This document shows positions 12,746 through 38,558 of a DNA stretch of 43,428 nucleotides, in pieces. The DNA comes from an uncultured Candidatus Saccharibacteria bacterium. Lineage in GTDB: Bacteria; Patescibacteriota; Minisyncoccia; Phycocordibacterales; UBA9973. The stretch is taken from assembly GCA_964446475.1 (NCBI GenBank), contig CAYUOT010000002.1, positions 1-43,428 on the forward strand, read 5' to 3'. A program made the translations under genes and the position numbers. The notes beneath the pieces were generated by a model. The model was not told the origin of the DNA. It searched no databases and saw only the letters and a program-made list of their open reading frames with translations. The number at the start of each line of letters is the position of its first letter. Position 1 is the first letter of the stretch.

Positions 12746-13387
12746 TTATGGTTGTAATATTTCATCACTATTCCAATTTCCATCTACAGCAAACTGTATA
12801 TCTTTAACACTAGGGAATTGTTTCAAGGTTTTATTTATAGAAGATAATCTAAAAAGACCACTGCAGCTTGCAAAGTTATTTTCTATTTCTTTACTAAAAT
12901 CAATAGAAAGTAAGCCATTTTTAATGTTTATAGAATTTATTTTTGTCCCTACTGGTACTGCACCATAATAACCCAATTTCTCTTCTTCTTTTGTTGGACC
13001 TTTAATTAACTCTTCTAGTGTTGCTTTAGCTATGGCTTCTGTTTTAAATATTTTTCTTTTTACTGGATAAACCAAACCACAATCTAACATTTCTGGATTA
13101 AAAATTTTATTACCAAAATATAATGTAATTTCTATTTCATTATTTAATGTAAGATTTTCTACCTGTTTATTGTTTTCTTCTTTATTTATTTCTTGAAAGC
13201 TCTCTTGTTTTTTCATATTTAATTCATCAGACAAATCATTCTTTTCTAACTTTTCCTCTGAATTAATATTTATTTCTTCATTTTTAACTTCCTTTTTTGT
13301 TCCCAAATAATAAGCACCACCAACGACAACTAAAGCTCCCAAAATAATTCCAAAAATTACAATTGTAGCAAAACCTTTGTTTTTCAT
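12746..13387 (-). CDS. membrane-anchored GerMN domain protein
   Basis: N-terminal TM ATIVIFGIILGALVVVGGAYYLG. GerMN-like ITLYFGN...LVYPVKRKI...ATLEELIKGPTKEEEKLGYYGAVPVGTKINSINIKNGLLSIDFSKE. Confidence 0.7.
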   Translation of the reverse strand: MKNKGFATIVIFGIILGALVVVGGAYYLGTKKEVKNEEININSEEKLEKNDLSDELNMKKQESFQEINKEENNKQVENLTLNNEIEITLYFGNKIFNPEMLDCGLVYPVKRKIFKTEAIAKATLEELIKGPTKEEEKLGYYGAVPVGTKINSINIKNGLLSIDFSKEIENNFASCSGLFRLSSINKTLKQFPSVKDIQFAVDGNWNSDEILQP

Positions 13388-13512
13388 AATAAATAAATTA
13401 AAATTTTAATAGTTTAATTATACCACAAATATAATACAAAAATCTTTATAGGTCTTGCCTATTCAGATTTTTATTTACTAAGTCGATGATATAGGTTTAA
13501 GATGATAAAGAG

Positions 13513-15297
13513 TTACTCCAATACTGCCTTGATTCTACGAACCCCAGCAGATGAAGCTTCTTCTTTTTGTATTTTAAAGTGACCGAGTTCTTTTGTATTT
13601 TCCACATGAGGGCCACCACAGAATTCTATACTTACATCCCCACCAGTCGGACTGGTGGGAGTACCCACTAGATCCGACTGGTGGTCTCCACCGATAAAAT
13701 AAACAGAAACAACTTCAGGGTATTTTGCTCCAAATTCCATTTCGGCTCCAAGTTTTTCTGCTTCAGCAAGTGGAAGTTCTCGACGAACAACTTTTAACCC
13801 TCTTTGTATTTTATCATTTACCCAATCTTCCACTTTATTTTTTTCTTCATCTGTAAGCTTTCTGTCAAACATAAAGTCTATTCGAAGTCTTTCCTCTGTA
13901 ATATTACTACCTCTTTGTTTAATATTTTTATCTATCACATTTTGCAGTCCCGCAAGAAGCAAATGGTGTGCCGTGTGAAGTCGAGTAGTTTTCTCACTAT
14001 GATTTGCAAGCCCACCCTTAAACATTCCTGCAGATGCAGTTCTTGAGAGCTCTTGATGTTCTTTCAGCTTTTTATTAAAATCTTCTAAATCTATTTCTCT
14101 TCCTTTTTCTTTTGCGAGCTCAAGTGTAAGCTCTATTGGAAATCCGTAAGTTGTGAAAAGTATAAATGGATCTTCTCCTTTTTCAAATTCCTTAAGACCT
14201 TTCTCTAGTGTTTGGCGAAACTTTTCTTCTTCTTTGTTTATTTCTAATTCTATATTATTAGACTGAGCTCCAATATAAGGATAAGTTATTTCATATTTAT
14301 GAACAACAGAAGTCGCAATAAAATGTAAAGAATTATTTGGCAAACCAAGTAAATCAGAATATCTAACCATTCTTCTTATTATTCTTCTTAAAACATATCC
14401 TCTATCTGTATTTGATGGAATAACGCCATCTCCAATCATAAATACTGCTGTTCTAATATGATCAGCTATTATTCTTTTATATAGGATAGAATCATTTTTT
14501 GGTCTTAAATGATTAAAAGCTCCAAAAATATATTCAAACAAATCTGTATCAAATACTGTTTTCACTCCTTGGCAGACCATTGTGATTCTTTCGAGACCCA
14601 TACCTGTATCTACGTTGTGTTGTGCAAGTTTACCGATGACTTTTCCTTCTTTCTTTTCGTATTCCATGAAAACATTATTCCAGATTTCTATTACTCGCCC
14701 TTCATCATCTGCTTTCACAAATTCATCATGAGTCATATCACCAAGTGCAATTTCATTGGTATCATAGAAAATTTCAGTATCAGGACCACAAGGGCCATTC
14801 TCACCTGCACTCCACCAATTATTCTTTGCGGGTAAGAAATAAATGCGATTCTCTGATAAATACTTTTTCCAAATTTCATATGCTTCATTATCTCGTGGAG
14901 CATTTTCATCTCCTTCAAAGACTGTCACATAAATTCTATTTACATCTAATCCAAGCCCTGTCTCTTTATTCGTAAGAAATTCGAAACTCCAAGCGATAGC
15001 ATCCTCTTTAAAATAATCTCCAAGAGACCAATTCCCCAGCATCTCAAAAAATGTAAGGTGTCTATTATCACCCACTTCATCTATGTCTCCAGTTCTAACA
15101 CACTTTTGTGCATCGCAAAGTCTAGTCCCCATAGGATGCTTTTGTCCAAGTAAATAAGGAACGAGTGGTTGCATCCCTGCGGTATTAAAAAGAACCGAAG
15201 GGTCGTTCTCGGGTACAAGTGAAGCGCTAGGTATTATTTTATGTCCTTTACTTTCAAAAAATTTTAAAAATTTATTTCTTATTTCTTCTGATCCCAT
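13513..15297 (-). CDS. alaS: alanine--tRNA ligase, compact form (no C-Ala domain)
   Basis: FLKFFESKGHKIIPSASLVPENDPSVLFNTAGMQP. Editing-domain HTAHHLL and CGGPHV. The ATG at 15297 (MGSEEIRNKF) is preferred over 15321, which would overlap the upstream gene. Stop at 13513. Confidence 0.92.
   Translation of the reverse strand: MGSEEIRNKFLKFFESKGHKIIPSASLVPENDPSVLFNTAGMQPLVPYLLGQKHPMGTRLCDAQKCVRTGDIDEVGDNRHLTFFEMLGNWSLGDYFKEDAIAWSFEFLTNKETGLGLDVNRIYVTVFEGDENAPRDNEAYEIWKKYLSENRIYFLPAKNNWWSAGENGPCGPDTEIFYDTNEIALGDMTHDEFVKADDEGRVIEIWNNVFMEYEKKEGKVIGKLAQHNVDTGMGLERITMVCQGVKTVFDTDLFEYIFGAFNHLRPKNDSILYKRIIADHIRTAVFMIGDGVIPSNTDRGYVLRRIIRRMVRYSDLLGLPNNSLHFIATSVVHKYEITYPYIGAQSNNIELEINKEEEKFRQTLEKGLKEFEKGEDPFILFTTYGFPIELTLELAKEKGREIDLEDFNKKLKEHQELSRTASAGMFKGGLANHSEKTTRLHTAHHLLLAGLQNVIDKNIKQRGSNITEERLRIDFMFDRKLTDEEKNKVEDWVNDKIQRGLKVVRRELPLAEAEKLGAEMEFGAKYPEVVSVYFIGGDHQSDLVGTPTSPTGGDVSIEFCGGPHVENTKELGHFKIQKEEASSAGVRRIKAVLE
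13636..13692 (-). repeat. GC-rich palindromic 48-nt in-frame module plus flanking GGD-codon repeat inside alaS
   Basis: Plus strand ccaccagtcggactggtgg (13640-13658) is a perfect 9+1+9 palindrome. ccgactggtgg recurs at 13674-13684. It encodes HQSDLVGTPTSPTGGD, preceded by GGD (ggtggagac vs ggtggggat on the coding strand). The segment is strongly GC-rich against AT-rich surroundings. Confidence 0.7.
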
Positions 15298-15301
15298 ATT
15301 T

Positions 15302-15790
15302 TTATAATTTATTATCTTCATTTCCTTCTTTAAACCATTTTAATGATTTTAATTTATTTTCTAAATACCATAAAACAACAAAAATAAATAAAATCAAAAA
15401 TGTAGAAAAAATAGCTATTTTAAATAAGCCAAAACCAGCAGCCATACCTATAGCAGCAGAAACCCAAAGCCCTGTCGCCGTTGTTAAACCTGTCAGTTTT
15501 GAATCTTTTGACATTATTATACCTGTACCAATAAAACCTACTCCTACAACAATTTGAGAAACCATCCTAAGTGGGTCAATAATATTACCAAAACCTAAAT
15601 ATTTTTTAACAACCTCCTCTGAAATAACAACAAACAAAGCAGCCCCCATAGAAACTAGAGCATATGTTCTCATTCCTGCCGTTTTATTCGCACGAGTTCT
15701 TTCTAATCCAATAAAAACACCTAACAACAAAGCTATTATTAATTTAAAAAATATGTCTAAATTATTAAATCCTAAAAATTCTAATATCAT
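15302..15790 (-). CDS. MgtC/SapB family membrane protein
   Basis: GLERTRANKTAGMRTYALVSMGAALF plus 4-5 hydrophobic segments. Confidence 0.8.
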   Translation of the reverse strand: MILEFLGFNNLDIFFKLIIALLLGVFIGLERTRANKTAGMRTYALVSMGAALFVVISEEVVKKYLGFGNIIDPLRMVSQIVVGVGFIGTGIIMSKDSKLTGLTTATGLWVSAAIGMAAGFGLFKIAIFSTFLILFIFVVLWYLENKLKSLKWFKEGNEDNKL

Positions 15791-15832
15791 ACTAATTATA
15801 TTATCATAATTAACTACTAATTAACACATGTC

Positions 15833-17011
15833 CTATTTAACAATACCTCCCCCCAAACAAACATCTCCGTCATAAACCACTATAGACTGTCCACTATCTA
15901 CCAAAATATTTTTATCAAATATGATTTGAGTTTTATTATCTTTTGATATATTTATATTACAATCCAAAAGTTCTCCATGATATCGAATTTGTGAAGTATA
16001 CTTTTTATTCTCTTTCGGAATTATAGTCCAGTTTGTATTGATTAATTCATAGGCAAGACCTATGTTCTTTTGTTTTTCAAAATTAGTACATAGGTCTTGC
16101 CTATAAGAATGCGTCGAAGTGGAAACTATAATTATATTTTTCTCTACATCTTTTCCTACCACATAATATGGTTTATCTTTTTCTGTTTTCTCTGTAATTA
16201 CAAACCCATGCCTTTCACCAAGAGTGAAAAATACTGCTCCATCATGAGTGCCTATTACTTTTCCATTTTCATCCAACACATCCCCTTTTTTAGATTCTAT
16301 ATAATGTTTAAGAAAATCTTTCATATCGAGTGGGCCCAAGAAACAAACTCCCTGACTATCTTTTTTTGTAGCCACAGGAATTTTATATTTCAAAGCTTTC
16401 TTCCTTACTTCAGTTTTATATAAATGCCCAATGGGGAAAAGCGTGTGACTCAAATCATCTTGTGTAAGAGTCCAAAGAAAATAAGATTGATCTTTGGAAG
16501 GGTCGGGGGATTTTAGCAAACTTTGTATTCTATCTCCTCCTTTTTGAGGAGGAGTGCCCAGAGGGCGAGGTGGTAATTCTTTTAAATCACCACCCCCTAC
16601 CCCCTCCTCCACAAGGAGGGGAGAATTCACTGCATAATGTCCTGTTGCGATAAAATCTGCCCCATGTTCTTTTGCAAATTGCCAAAAGACACCAAACTTC
16701 ACCATGCGATTACACATTACATCTGGGTTGGGAGTTCTACCACATTTATACTCTTCTATCATATAGTCAGCTACACCTTTTTTGTAAGCATCTTCACCAT
16801 CACATTCAAGAAAAGGTATATCTAAGTGAGCACATACCCTCATCGCATCTCTCCTCTCGTCTCTCCAAGTACAATCTATAAAATCTGGTGTCCAAGTACG
16901 GATAAAAACCCCAACGACATCGTAACCCTGGTCTTTCAGAAGAGCGGCTGAAACAGAGCTATCTACCCCACCCGAAACCCCTACAAATACTGTTTTTTTA
17001 TTTTTATTCAT
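15833..17011 (-). CDS. mnmA: tRNA 2-thiouridine(34) synthase MnmA
   Basis: PP-loop VFVGVSGGVDSSVSAALL, ATGHYA, KDQSYFL, QIRYHGE. Confidence 0.92.
   Translation of the reverse strand: MNKNKKTVFVGVSGGVDSSVSAALLKDQGYDVVGVFIRTWTPDFIDCTWRDERRDAMRVCAHLDIPFLECDGEDAYKKGVADYMIEEYKCGRTPNPDVMCNRMVKFGVFWQFAKEHGADFIATGHYAVNSPLLVEEGVGGGDLKELPPRPLGTPPQKGGDRIQSLLKSPDPSKDQSYFLWTLTQDDLSHTLFPIGHLYKTEVRKKALKYKIPVATKKDSQGVCFLGPLDMKDFLKHYIESKKGDVLDENGKVIGTHDGAVFFTLGERHGFVITEKTEKDKPYYVVGKDVEKNIIIVSTSTHSYRQDLCTNFEKQKNIGLAYELINTNWTIIPKENKKYTSQIRYHGELLDCNINISKDNKTQIIFDKNILVDSGQSIVVYDGDVCLGGGIVK
16049..16104. repeat. 56-nt hairpin with 16-bp perfect arms inside mnmA
   Basis: ataggcaagacctatg (16049-16064) pairs with cataggtcttgcctat (16089-16104) across a 24-nt loop. 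The arm 15-mer ataggtcttgcctat also occurs at 13448-13462. Confidence 0.85.
16532..16624 (-). repeat. GC-rich triple-hairpin ~93-nt in-frame module inside mnmA
   Basis: Three hairpins: ctcctcc/ggaggag (16534-16554), ggtggt/accacc (16569-16594), cccctcct/aggagggg (16601-16621). The module encodes SPLLVEEGVGGGDLKELPPRPLGTPPQKGGD between ATGHYAVN and RIQSLLKSPDPSKDQSYFL. Confidence 0.7.
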
Positions 17012-17056
17012 TTACAAATAGATAATATACAAAATTTATATTAAATACAAATCCAT

Positions 17057-17087
17057 AAAATGCGTCAGCCTTCGGCTGACGCATTTT
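17057..17087 (-). terminator. terminator after the 1072-aa surface-protein gene
   Basis: aaaatgcgtcagcc / ttc / ggctgacgcatttt: a perfect 14-bp stem with A/T-run flanks (3-nt central loop as drawn; the top pairs may open). Confidence 0.85.
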
Positions 17088-17102
17088 GTATTTAGCATTT
17101 AA

Positions 17103-20100
17103 CTATTTCAATTCATTCATCTTTGCAATAGTAAGCTTACCTATTAGACCGTCTGGAGTAAGTCCGTTTGCTTTTTGGAAAGCAATAACTGCTTGTTTAG
17201 TCTTTGGTCCGAAGATACCGTCTGGTAGACCTAGTATGTAACCTTTTGATGTTAGATATGTTTGTATTTGTTTGATATCATCCCCTCTTGTGCCTTGTTT
17301 TAGAAGTCTAGTGTATATCATAGAGAAAGAAGGAGTAGTGATAGGGTTTTTGATTTCTGGATTAGTATTTACTATGTTTTCTGATTTTTTGCCTAGTAGT
17401 GTAGATGGATTGATACTACCGATAACTCGGGAATGTCTTTTTGTATCGTTATCATCCTCATCGTCTACTACATCACAAGCACTTGTGGTAAATGTCATAT
17501 CTTCTCCGTATGATGTTCCTGCACTGTTAGTAGCATAGGCTCGATAGTGGTATGTAGTATTGCAATCTAGATTACTTAGATCATATGAGAATGTACCTGT
17601 TGCTTCTTCCATTTCTACTGTACCTGTAGCCATTAGATATGAATTATCTAATCCTATTTGGAATCCGAGTTCAGATAAATCTTCTCCTCCGTTGTTTGTT
17701 ACTTCTCCTTTTAGGGTGGCTCCTGTTTGAGTGATAGATGTAGGGGTAGATGAAATTAATGTGGGAATAGAAATAGGTTTTACATATTTCATTATGATAG
17801 CTTTATTATTGTTAGTATCGTCTACATATGCTACATATAGAGTATCATTTAAAGAAAAAACGAGAGAGGTATAATCAGCTTCCCCAGTAGAGAATTCAAT
17901 TAATCCAACAGAAACCCAAGAATTTCCATCAAATTTCATAACAGTGGCTTTATTATTATTAGCAAAATCTGAATATGCTACATATGGAATACCATCTGAA
18001 GAAATATCAATAGTAATATATTCAACTATTCCTGCCGAGAACCCAGCTGAACCAACAAGAATCCATGATGAACCATCAAATTTCATAACAGTAGCTTTCT
18101 GGTTATTAGCACCATCTTGATATGCTATATATAGAGTATTATCTGGAGAAATTGATAAATCTAAATATGCTAAACCAGAACTTACCCAACCTTCTGAAAA
18201 TCCAGCTGGACCAACAAGAATCCATGATGAACCATCAAATTTCATAACAGTAGCCTTACTGCTATTAGCATTATCTGAATATGCTACATATGGAGTATTA
18301 TCTGGAGAAATAGCGAAAGAAATATTATAAACTCCAGTTGCTGAAAATCCAGCTTGGCCAACAGGAATCCATGATGAACCATCAAATTTCATAACGGTGG
18401 CTTTATAGTTATTAGCACTATCTGTATATGCTACGTATGGAGTGCCATCTGAAGAAAAAGCAAGAGATAAACCATTAGACCATTGTGCTGAAAATCCAGC
18501 TTGGCCAACAGGAATCCATGATGTTCCATCAAATTTCATAACATTAATTTTACCACTCATACCATCTACATATGCTACATAGGGAATATTATCTGGAGAA
18601 ATTAATAAATCTGAATATCCTTGACTAACACTTATATAACTTTCTGAAAATCCAGCTTGGCCAACAGGAATCCATGATGAACCATCAAATTTCATGACGG
18701 TAGCTTTACCACTATTATTAACATTATCTGAATATGCTACATATGGAATATTGTCTGTAGAGACAGAGAAACTAATACCCCCCAAACTTTCTGAAATTCC
18801 AACTGAATCAACGGGGACCCAAAAATCATCATGAAAAGTAATACTTCCTTGATTATTTGTATAATTTATAACACCACTTGCAGTTGCAGTATCTGTAAAT
18901 GCTCCATCTAAAAATGTAATCGTAAGATTTGAAATACTATCAGATAAAAGACTATCCGTAGCATTACCCGTGAAAGTCAAAATTGCAATTGTTCCATCAC
19001 TATTAATGGTCATAACAGGAGTTAAACCAGAAGGCATAGGAGAAATAGTATAATGAGTGTTTAAGGTTAAGGTACTATTTGCATTTATAAAAGTATCATT
19101 TGCTAAGGTTATTACCCTACTACCAGTAACACTTCCATTATTAGATTCCAACTCACTGAAATTACCAGAGTATGATGTAATAATAGGATCAAAAATAAGT
19201 TTCATGATGGTGGCGTATTTTTCAGTACTATTTCCATTTGTATATACTACATATGGAATATCATCTGAAGAAATAGCAAGAGAAATATTACGAGCTGATC
19301 CTGCTGAAAATCCAGCTTGGCCAACAGGAATCCATGATGAACCATCAAATTTCATAGCAGTAGCTTTATTATAATTATCGAGATCTGCATATACTACATA
19401 TGGAGTATTGTCTGAAGAAAAAGCAAGTTTACCACCACCAGATTCTGATGAAAACCCAACTGGACCAACGGGAACCCAAGCTGAACTATCAAATTTCATG
19501 ACAGTGGTTTTATTATCATCTGCATATGCTACATATGGAATGTCGTCTGAAGAAAAAGCAAGAGAAATATAATTAGTCCAACCTGTTGAGAAATTAGCTG
19601 AACCAACTAGAACCCAAGAATTTCCATCAAATTTCATGACGGTAGTTTCATTACTATTGTCTCTATCTAGATATGCTACATATGGAGTGTCATCTGAAGA
19701 AAAAGCAAAAGAAATACCATTAACTTTTCCTAATGAGAAATTAGCTGAACCAACTAGAACCCAAGAATTTCCATCAAATTTCATGACGGTAGGTTTATTA
19801 CGGTAATAAAGATGATCAATATATGCTACGTATGGAGTGCCGTCTGAAGAAAAAGCAAGAGAAATACCACTAGCTCTTCCTGGTGAAAAACCAACTGACC
19901 CAACGGGAATCCAAGAATTTCCATCAAATTTCATGACAGTGATTTTATCATTATTAGCATCATCTACATATGCTACATATGGAATGTCGTCTGAAGAAAA
20001 AGCAAGAGAAAAATCACTAGCATCCCCTGCTGAAAAACCAACTGACCCAACGGGAACCCAAGTTGAAGTTAAACCATCAAATTTCACGACAGTGGCTTCA

Positions 20101-37411: not shown

Positions 37412-37439
37412 TCAATAATAATTAATTTATATTAAATGT

Positions 37440-37469
37440 AAAATGCGTCAGCTAAAACTGACGCATTTT
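37440..37469 (+). terminator. terminator after ftsZ
   Basis: aaaatgcgtcag / ctaaaa / ctgacgcatttt. The 12-nt arms are identical to those of the terminator at 17057. Confidence 0.85.
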
Positions 37470-37553
37470 ACATTTTCAAACACAAATTAAAAATAAAACA
37501 GATATGTGATATAATAAAATTATTAATTAATAAATAATAAAGAAACTAATCTT

Positions 37554-38480: not shown

Positions 38481-38511
38481 CAGAATAATTTATAATACGA
38501 TTAATTTAATT

Positions 38512-38542
38512 AAAAATGCACCAGATTTACTGGTGCATTTTT
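38512..38542. terminator. bidirectional terminator between convergent trxB and the nucleotidyltransferase gene
   Basis: aaaaatgcaccag / attta / ctggtgcattttt. Confidence 0.85.
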
Positions 38543-38558
38543 AATTAAACTTCAAAAA

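Follow-up and report, generated by a model that had tools for sequence, protein, structure and literature searches.

The alaS gene of an uncultured Candidatus Saccharibacteria bacterium, which encodes alanyl-tRNA synthetase (AlaRS), contains a short GC-rich palindromic module that is read through in frame. The module lies in a stretch of 43,428 nucleotides (contig CAYUOT010000002.1 of assembly GCA_964446475.1, positions 1 to 43,428), referred to here as the window. Comparison with relatives and with other genomes indicates that it is probably an intragenic copy of a repetitive extragenic palindromic (REP) element, in a doublet form like that of the REP doublets forming hairpins known as REPINs, and that it belongs to a family of the Candidate Phyla Radiation (CPR) linked to a gene for a REP-associated tyrosine transposase (RAYT). 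What is new is an untagged, undescribed repeat family in a new phylum, with an unusually high intragenic fraction and a RAYT gene that has an in-frame palindrome of its own. In the limited literature set searched, no paper was found in which CPR, Parcubacteria, or Nomurabacteria are connected with REP/RAYT systems or with palindromes read in frame, nor did the REP/RAYT literature searched yield a description of a RAYT gene with an in-frame copy of its own palindrome.

The palindromic module in alaS

The host gene and the parts of the module, including the putative REP doublet, are arranged as follows.

13513..15321, minus strand: alaS host gene, coding for a 602-residue AlaRS without the C-terminal domain, like its CPR orthologs
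13627..13638, minus strand: right flank of the module, codons D562-I565 (GAT GTA AGT ATA), where NVISK of the empty-site orthologs has become DVSI
13639..13684, minus strand: putative 46-nt REP doublet (REPIN-like), two inverted CCACCAGTC-N-GACTGGTGG palindromes that jointly make one long hairpin
13639..13659: unit A, a perfect 21-nt palindrome CCCACCAGTCGGACTGGTGGG = CCCACCAGTC-G-GACTGGTGGG, coding P555-G561 (PTSPTGG)
13660..13663: 4-nt spacer between units A and B, AGTA on the plus strand, the loop of the long hairpin; ATTA in the doublets of PIF1 genes described below
13664..13684: unit B, a degenerate inverted copy CCCACTAGATCCGACTGGTGG (CCCACTAGATC-C-GACTGGTGG)
13685..13692, minus strand: further new sequence, GGTGGAGA on the coding strand, comprising codons G544 and G545 with part of D546; missing at the empty site

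The product is recognized in Pfam by its tRNA-synt_2c (E = 1.1e-135) and tRNA_SAD (E = 8.3e-17) domains. On the plus strand, unit A at 13639-13659 consists of 10-nt arms with 1 nt in between, and unit B is distinguished from it by a C>T change, a 1-nt insertion, and a central C in place of G; the palindrome unit in the doublet measures 19-21 nt. An alternative 12-bp stem pairs 13640-13651 with 13673-13684 at 100% complementarity, an inner GTGGG/CCCAC pair is present, and a direct repeat, TCGGACTGGTGG / TCCGACTGGTGG, occurs at a spacing of 26 nt. Local GC content rises to 62.5%, compared with a window mean of 30.4%, and the segment remains in frame, coding G544-D562 (...GGDHQSDLVGTPTSPTGGD...) within the insert-spanning AlaRS peptide HQSDLVGTPTSPTGGD. 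The initial annotation had described the perfect palindrome, the alternative stem, the inner pair, the direct repeat, the GC contrast, and the in-frame coding, and every one of these is confirmed in the sequence.

The alaS palindromes are far beyond chance. At up to 2 mismatches, 12-mer matches in the window number 3, with 0.45 expected. Folding of the 71-nt region yields -35.6 kcal/mol for RNA (z = -4.0) and -21.7 kcal/mol for DNA (z = -6.8), with 0 of 200 shuffles as good; at minimum free energy it forms one 45-nt hairpin with 19-20 bp. If the tRNA gene and ordinary conserved motifs are set aside, the window has only two GC islands of this kind, the alaS module and an island in mnmA, and among the perfect palindromes with stems of at least 8 bp across the window, those that are both GC-rich and intragenic are confined to the alaS module and two in mnmA. 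An Rfam E-value scan of 13000-17500 returned sub-threshold noise only and no known RNA family. A partial third palindrome arm may be represented by the extra GGTGGAGA (13685-13692). Partial single arms (CCCACCAGA, GGACTGGTGGGGG) frequently adjoin full palindromes at other loci as well (L027:1202-1245, L030:1040-1074, L057:1124-1158), and these may have been left behind by cleavage and rejoining or by slippage.

Among relatives, the extra residues are confined to a very narrow group. In an alignment of the window's AlaRS with its 119 closest homologues (120 sequences from Paceibacteria/Nomurabacteria, 68-90% identity), the segment is carried by the window's protein and by P0002 only, and it is missing from the other 118. 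At this position 115 of the 120 sequences have F[IV]EDENGNAISKEFCGGPHV, and the orthologs show a short, ordinary EDENGN turn. P0002 is the AlaRS encoded on locus L001, a Logan assembly of a different run (SRR27197503) that is 94.3% identical to the window in nucleotide sequence, and its module is base-for-base identical to the window's and likewise in frame. Since this independent sample has the identical module, an assembly artefact is excluded. An explanation by assembly error or chimera, or by a purely local palindrome arising de novo through slippage, could draw on the single copy in the window and on the AT-rich metagenomic nature of the contig; it is opposed by the identical in-frame module of L001, in a gene that is 94% identical overall, and by the occurrence of the identical 19-mer and of a near-identical doublet in many unrelated contigs. 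It was rejected on the strength of the L001 module, the family copies elsewhere, and the PIF1 doublets, and its probability is negligible.

A second relative, L002 (90.4% nucleotide identity), preserves the empty site as TTT GTA GAA GAT GAA CAA GGA AAT GTA ATT TCT AAA GAA TTC, translated F-VEDEQGNVISK-EF, in which neither GGTGGAGAC nor GGTGGGGAT occurs. The initial annotation had envisaged a clean 48-nt insertion, bounded by a GGD...GGD target-site duplication, whose deletion would restore the ancestral enzyme. Measured against L002, however, 18 new codons (13639-13692) stand in place of a beta-turn of 5-6 codons, a net difference of +36 nt accompanied by flanking substitutions, and excision of 48 nt leaves AlaRS 4 residues too short and does not return the F[IV]EDENGNAISKEFCGGPHV reading of the orthologs. 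Nor was the duplication borne out, as the L002 empty site has no GGD codons and the right-hand "GGD" is the 3' end of the palindrome itself; the lack of a target-site duplication at the alaS site is what HUH Y1 enzymes predict. A miniature inverted-repeat transposable element with terminal inverted repeats and a target-site duplication was rejected because neither GGTGGAGAC nor GGTGGGGAT is found at the empty site of L002.

The protein context of the insert was modelled with AlphaFold2 using the 120-sequence alignment (mean predicted local distance difference test score, pLDDT, 81.4). Strands 537-544 and 562-567 are joined by coil at residues 545-561, where pLDDT drops under 50 over 548-560, and the insert site lies six residues ahead of Cys568 of the Zn-binding CxxxH motif (C568-x3-H572). 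The site is therefore the turn between these two beta-strands rather than the conserved strand of the editing core to which it had first been assigned, and the insert appears in the model as a disordered loop extension before CxxxH, predicted to disrupt no strand.

The same AlaRS beta-turn is occupied by other inserts in two further orthologs. In the alaS gene of P0075 (L003:11610-11710) it has a different GC-rich hairpin, ATCTCCCCCTTGATAAGGGGGAGAT, coding LPLDKGE, and the AlaRS P0094 has yet another insert (ITLDKGEGQGGG). These differences indicate that the loop was struck independently by different palindrome families.

A palindrome family and its RAYT-like gene

The family to which the alaS palindromes belong has the core CCACCAGTC-N-GACTGGTGG, often extended to tttC...Gaaa, and its single-stranded hairpin form is CCACCAGTCSGACTGGTGG. 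Genomes, one for each GTDB species, and a metagenome collection were scanned for exact matches to CCACCAGTCNGACTGGTGG. The exact 19-nt core was found at 21 loci in the genome collection, 13 of them from 8 CPR metagenome-assembled genomes (MAGs) labelled Parcubacteria, Nomurabacteria, Paceibacterota, or Saccharibacteria; the remaining matches are scattered singles in unrelated taxa, such as chance would predict for 18 specified bases. The metagenome collection contributed 50 further loci with the exact core, mostly of 28-40% GC (~40 low-GC). Exact copies number 1-6 per genome, MAG SJ250 having 6 on 4 contigs and MAG SO_2017_GW1_135 having 5. The flanks that extend the stem are genome-specific (tttc/gaaa, ccag/ctgg, attcc/ggaat). 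A viral origin of the family was considered and rejected, IMG/VR giving 2 matches only, one of them a high-GC chance match.

Classification of 64 non-redundant low-GC copies into four classes gives the following distribution.

16 of 64: flanking a RAYT-like gene
6 of 64: inside a RAYT-like gene
19 of 64 (~30%): inside other long open reading frames (ORFs)
23 of 64: other copies, mostly intergenic and often flanked by A-runs and T-runs like bidirectional terminators

Besides alaS, at least eight genes are in-frame hosts: pheT, rnhB, fmt, miaA, dapF, ligA, mnmA, and PIF1. The copies concerned are these.

L005, complete RAAC4_OD1_1 contig: PIF1-like helicase, by Pfam
L009: Fmt, with two perfect tandem units, by Pfam
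L010: PheT B5 domain, by Pfam
L013: RNase HII, by Pfam
L017: MnmA, by Pfam
L018: MiaA, by Pfam
L020: DapF, by Pfam
L037: LigA, identified by eye from the translation rather than by Pfam
L028, metagenome locus: second MnmA site
L043 and L048/L069, metagenome loci: further PIF1 doublets

The doublets in PIF1 are the closest counterparts to the arrangement in alaS. Those of L005, L043, and L048 match it at 44 of 46 positions, with 1 substitution and 1 indel, and they have in common with it the diagnostic C>T of unit B. Such near-identity shows that the doublet is a dispersed unit in its own right. The proposal with which the analysis began, that of a short palindromic repeat tolerated as an in-frame peptide insertion, is thus upheld by the ordinary turn in the orthologs, by the copies in related CPR genomes, and by the identical module in an independent sample.

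Across its hosts the palindrome is read in all three frames, as PPVGLV, HQSDWW, or TSPTGG, and it is free of stop codons in all six. The use of three reading frames implies that it is the DNA that is conserved and not the peptide. This bears directly on the suggestion that the 12 extra residues of AlaRS form a lineage-specific adaptive loop, selected for editing or tRNA binding, with the palindromic character of the DNA being incidental. The location of the insert six residues before the Zn-binding Cys568 is in favour of such a role, as is the centre codon of single intragenic copies, which is Pro or Gly, and never Arg, at 7 of 7 independent sites; the latter bias hints at some filtering at the protein level and would argue that the copies are translated. 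Yet the same DNA is read in three frames in different proteins, the palindrome occurs also between genes and as flanks of RAYT genes, the AlaRS loop is predicted to be disordered, and 118 of the 120 orthologs do without it, so that an adaptive loop is very improbable.

Retention at one site in distant orthologs is found for two hosts. In PheT, six orthologs with 44-67% amino acid identity (L010, L029, L036, L042, L045, L072) all have the perfect 19-nt palindrome at one particular codon position of the B5 domain. In RNase HII, one site has the palindrome in three orthologs (L013, L039, L052), with differing frames or orientations (PPVGLVG versus PTSPTGG). Searches for exact palindromes bias the sample towards conserved copies. 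In the rnhB gene of L039, a variant palindrome, ATCACCGGTCAGACCGGTGAT, adjoins the first and has compensatory changes. In fmt, the locus L061:9524-10417 has a different repeated insert (GMPRGSSVSESLCGMPRGS) where its ortholog L009 has the two tandem CCACCAGTC palindromes.

The second major feature of the family is its association with one gene. Of the 64 non-redundant copies, 22 bracket or sit within the gene of a ~230-residue HUH/Tyr protein, and in tblastn searches a homologue of this RAYT-like protein adjoins palindromes in 10 distinct loci (L008, L022, L025/L075, L030, L035, L041, L051, L061, L064, L073), the palindromes lying 3-56 nt from the ends of its ORF. Three palindromes are placed around the ~230-residue ORF in L008, L025, and L022. 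The middle one is within the ORF in the first two; in L022 it comes immediately after the stop codon, with the third palindrome located past the adjacent gene. In this Saccharibacteria-labelled locus an ORF of 231 residues with an HNH-like C-terminus (L022:1513-2208) lies between palindromes 2 and 3, directly downstream of the RAYT gene.

The protein family has more than 7,700 homologues, largely from CPR, some of which bear the JGI name "REP element-mobilizing transposase RayT," and the HUH histidines (H83, H85) and Tyr150/Tyr154 are invariant in 68 homologues. Its match to the NCBIfam model REP_Tyr_transpos has E ~1e-12 (46-48 bits). An AlphaFold2 model (pLDDT 88.9) has as its top fold match in the PDB the entry 4er8 (E = 3.3e-7, TM 0.61 on the target), which is the E. 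coli RAYT bound to a REP hairpin, and ranks 2-20 are TnpA proteins of IS200/IS605.

The palindrome within the RAYT gene co-varies with the gene that holds it. After the HUH strand, the alignment shows the motif SH-x-SD-x-W, in which the x pairs are Q/W, K/L, M/M, or R/L in 58 of 68 sequences, and the codon pairs used are exactly those that keep the DNA palindrome CAC-xxG-TC-N-GAC-xxG-TGG. L076, of the K/L type, has three copies of CCATAAGTCGGACTTATGG, one 56 nt ahead of the gene, one within it, and one 3 nt beyond the stop codon, and L079, of the M/M type, has CCACATGTCNGACATGTGG upstream and internally. The triple layout recurs with CCATAGGC...GCCTATGG around a RAYT that is 57% identical (L042), and again in L029, whose RAYT is 36% identical and has its internal copy ahead of the HUH motif. 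Palindromes thus flank RAYT also where the cognate palindrome is another one, in L076, L079, L042, and L029. By these layouts, each RAYT examined has its cognate palindrome at three places, the 5' flank, an in-frame internal position, and the 3' flank, the sequences co-varying. The CPR RAYT genes with their own palindrome are as follows.

L008:362-1143
L025:5202-5983
L076:5945-6717
L079:5975-6726
L042:2614-3371
L029:4782-5524

Related systems and the origin of the alaS copy

The closest known counterparts are the REP/REPIN-RAYT systems, or "REPtrons," of Proteobacteria, typified by E. coli TnpA-REP and the REPINs of Pseudomonas (PMC5581495, PMC3733652). As in these, the CPR palindromes are ~20 nt in length and, in MAGs such as SJ250, dispersed, and inverted pairing, which is frequent, lets a doublet fold as one long hairpin; the alaS module has both the stem-loop and the REPIN form. 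In other CPR genomes, copies directly border both sides of an HUH/Tyr gene whose product has 4er8 as its best match in fold; target-site duplications are absent, and cognate palindromes differ among RAYT lineages. The two nonetheless diverge in several respects. The CPR hosts are Paceibacteria, Nomurabacteria, and Saccharibacteria-labelled MAGs, and the family is low-copy, with 1-6 exact copies per genome and ~30% of copies intragenic and in frame. Its GTC-N-GAC core forms an almost loop-less stem without the 5' GTAG/CGTC tag by which REPs are recognized (PMC3733652). The RAYT gene has a third, in-frame cognate palindrome, and its ~230-residue protein has a C-terminal extension and scores under the curated RAYT cut-off. 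Being inside alaS, the copy departs from the extragenic location expected of REPs, although intragenic REPs are a documented minority elsewhere (PMC3733652).

Such a minority was described by Di Nocera et al. (2013), who reported GTAG/CGTC REP singles and dimers inside uvrA, uvrB, recB, and other genes of Opitutus terrae, Xanthomonas, and Rickettsia conorii (PMC3733652). There too, whole singles or dimers lie within ORFs of known proteins, adding roughly 10-30 residues at what are presumed to be loops or linkers, and orthologs can have different REPs at a shared site (PMC3733652). The CPR family differs in its untagged sequence, in its phylum, and in its hosts, which are mainly translation, tRNA-modification, and replication genes, and it has a dedicated transposase, which the CGTC families do not (PMC3733652).

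The initial annotation had likened the module to Rickettsia palindromic elements (RPEs; Ogata et al. 2000, via PMC10969869). The likeness stands insofar as RPEs are palindromic selfish DNA inserted in frame in unrelated housekeeping genes of a reduced genome and translated into extra surface peptides compatible with the fold (PMC10969869). RPE-1-type elements, however, are ~100-150 bp long and encode a conserved peptide of 30-50 residues in one frame, and no transposase is known for RPEs, which occur in Rickettsia only (PMC10969869); the CPR element measures 19-46 nt, is read in all three frames, and is linked to RAYT. The separation from RPE-1 to RPE-10 is by size and reading frames. The REP/REPIN doublet with its RAYT-like gene is accordingly the closer analogy.

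With the IS200/IS605 elements (IS608, ISDra2) the CPR system has in common the HUH Y1 transposase fold and hairpins at both ends of the transposase gene; on the insertion sequence side, substrates are single-stranded DNA and no target-site duplication is made. In the CPR family, by contrast, hairpins also stand alone at scattered sites remote from any transposase gene, one and the same palindrome is found on both flanks in place of distinct left and right ends, and the protein matches the RAYT rather than the IS200 profile.

A history of the alaS copy may be proposed on these analogies. By its fold match to 4er8 and by comparison with IS608 and ISDra2, the CPR RAYT would bind and cleave its REP as single-stranded DNA; following its homology with E. 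coli TnpA-REP, IS608, ISDra2, and the IS200/IS605 enzymes, it would recognize the hairpin, cut, and rejoin, spreading units or doublets without target-site duplications. We infer that the alaS module was mobilized in this manner. The doublet would have landed in an ancestor of the window strain and L001, after the L002 lineage had split off, in DNA coding for the beta-hairpin turn of the AlaRS editing/SAD domain, where, as presence and absence among the relatives show, 18 new codons took the place of the EDENGN turn of 5-6 codons. Since all six frames of the palindrome are free of stops and the net change is divisible by three, the reading frame survived, and because the extra residues form, in the model, a disordered surface loop near CxxxH, the essential gene presumably stayed functional and the copy was kept. 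More generally, only copies that preserve the frame, lack stops, and fall in loops would survive in essential genes. By its distribution the alaS copy is recent. Speculatively, so stable an mRNA hairpin might also affect translation or mRNA stability.

Several observations weigh against this account. The RAYT gene is absent from the 43-kb window (tblastn), and searches of the window (12-mer at up to 2 mismatches, 19-mer at up to 4 edits, all GTC-N-GAC-centred palindromes) return the alaS module only, with no second copy at up to 4 edits either there or in the syntenic relatives, which were covered over ~85 kb; the window's copy may be a relic. Copy numbers are far below those of classical REPs, and the complete 693-kb RAAC4_OD1_1 contig has one exact match only, its PIF1 doublet. 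The GTAG/CGTC tag is missing: among 62 oriented copies 1 has GTAG and 2 have CGTC, and the flank consensus is tttC / Gaaa. The 46-48 bits of the protein fall below the 80-bit NCBIfam cut-off, its match to Pfam Y1_Tnp is weak and also below cut-off, and PDB sequence searches with the RAYT as a single sequence and as a profile gave nothing meaningful. The junctions of the module are untidy when set against L002, with several flanking codons substituted and one codon probably lost, and a simple cut-and-paste event would not seem sufficient to explain all of these changes. Finally, retention in PheT suggests, for at least some hosts, selection or repeated conversion rather than passive tolerance.

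Some of these points are accommodated by a different route of copying within the same family. The alaS copy could have been derived from a copy elsewhere in the genome, such as a doublet of the PIF1 type, without RAYT-catalysed transposition, through ectopic gene conversion, illegitimate recombination, or template switching at hairpins. The messy junctions (net +36 nt for a 46-nt doublet, the extra GGTGGAGA, the substituted flanking codons), a window with neither RAYT nor another copy, and the near-identity of the doublet as a unit to those of PIF1 would all fit, as would the re-use of protein loops by different hairpin families (L003 alaS with ATCTCCCCCTTGATAAGGGGGAGAT, Fmt of L061 with another repeat). 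But the empty site has no homology to the element that could prime conversion, tblastn finds no PIF1 gene in the window, and the tight, co-varying pairing of palindrome type with RAYT points to an enzyme-driven system; copying without RAYT is rather unlikely.

A further question is whether the hairpin is selected as a nucleic acid, be it as a translational pause or mRNA-stability element or as a DNA site for RAYT or another protein in a genome-wide network. The perfect 19-nt palindromes at one PheT position in six orthologs and at one RNase HII position in three are consistent with such selection, as is the great stability of the hairpin. Every RAYT subfamily examined, moreover, keeps its own in-frame palindrome through compensatory codon pairs (58/68), and the 36%-identical RAYT has an internal copy at a different position. 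Against this, the alaS copy is present in only two close strains among 120 orthologs and its unit B is already degenerate, both of which fit a recent neutral insertion, and exact-palindrome searches favour conserved copies. For the alaS module, selection on the hairpin is thus unlikely. A bolder version, in which CPR bacteria have a REP-RAYT system of a distinct kind whose palindrome is actively maintained inside coding sequences rather than merely tolerated as selfish DNA in loops, the alaS doublet being a recent recruit, is likewise doubtful; if true, it would imply that hairpins are homed or repaired with the help of RAYT, or that those in coding regions act in regulation.

More broadly, CPR genomes, although very small and generally regarded as having little mobile DNA, host REP-RAYT systems whose palindromes reach essential translation and replication genes. 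The pairs of RAYT subfamily and palindrome (CCACCAGTC, CCATAAGTC, CCACATGTC, CCATAGGC, and others) amount to an enzyme-hairpin table for DNA recognition by HUH Y1 proteins, and the recurrent use of loops in alaS, fmt, rnhB, and mnmA shows where conserved enzymes tolerate insertions in nature. Peptides coded by the repeat (HQSDWW, TSPTGG, PPVGLV) in marker genes such as alaS and pheT can distort alignments or pass for lineage-specific motifs.

The mnmA module and other hairpins of the window

The other GC-rich intragenic island of the window is a separate element.

16533..16622, minus strand: mnmA module, ~90 nt, GC-rich with four hairpins, in frame (SPLLVEEGVGGGDLKELPPRPLGTPPQKGGD)

It is positioned between ATGHYA and KSPDxSKDQSYF and folds at -58.3 kcal/mol (z = -6.1). 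The initial annotation had taken it to be related in sequence to the alaS module, a relation that was rejected for want of a common core: the two have only GGTGG/CCACC in common, and mnmA has no GTC-N-GAC core. To judge from its sequence, the mnmA module is a different type of element from the alaS family, and it is more like the CTCCCCCTT/AAGGGGGAG hairpin in the alaS loop of L003 than the alaS module of the window.

The module is found in L001 and L002 and in the more distant L084-L086 (L084:10367-10528, L085:10367-10537, L086:5218-5415), with two compensatory pairs, so that between lineages its DNA sequence is conserved. Across 80 orthologs the insertion site has 28-76 residues and at least seven types of insert peptide, and by these comparisons the mnmA loop is an insertion hot spot. 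A search of 569 kb from related loci gave the hairpin sequences at orthologous sites of mnmA and nowhere else, and the module has no Rfam match.

Additional hairpins occur elsewhere in the window. Two intergenic, terminator-like ones, at 17057-17087 and 37434-37475, have common arms, AAAATGCGTCAGC / GCTGACGCATTTT, and may thus represent another small family of repeats in the window. A further hairpin at 38505-38549 has the arm TGCACCAG, similar to the REP arm CCACCAG.

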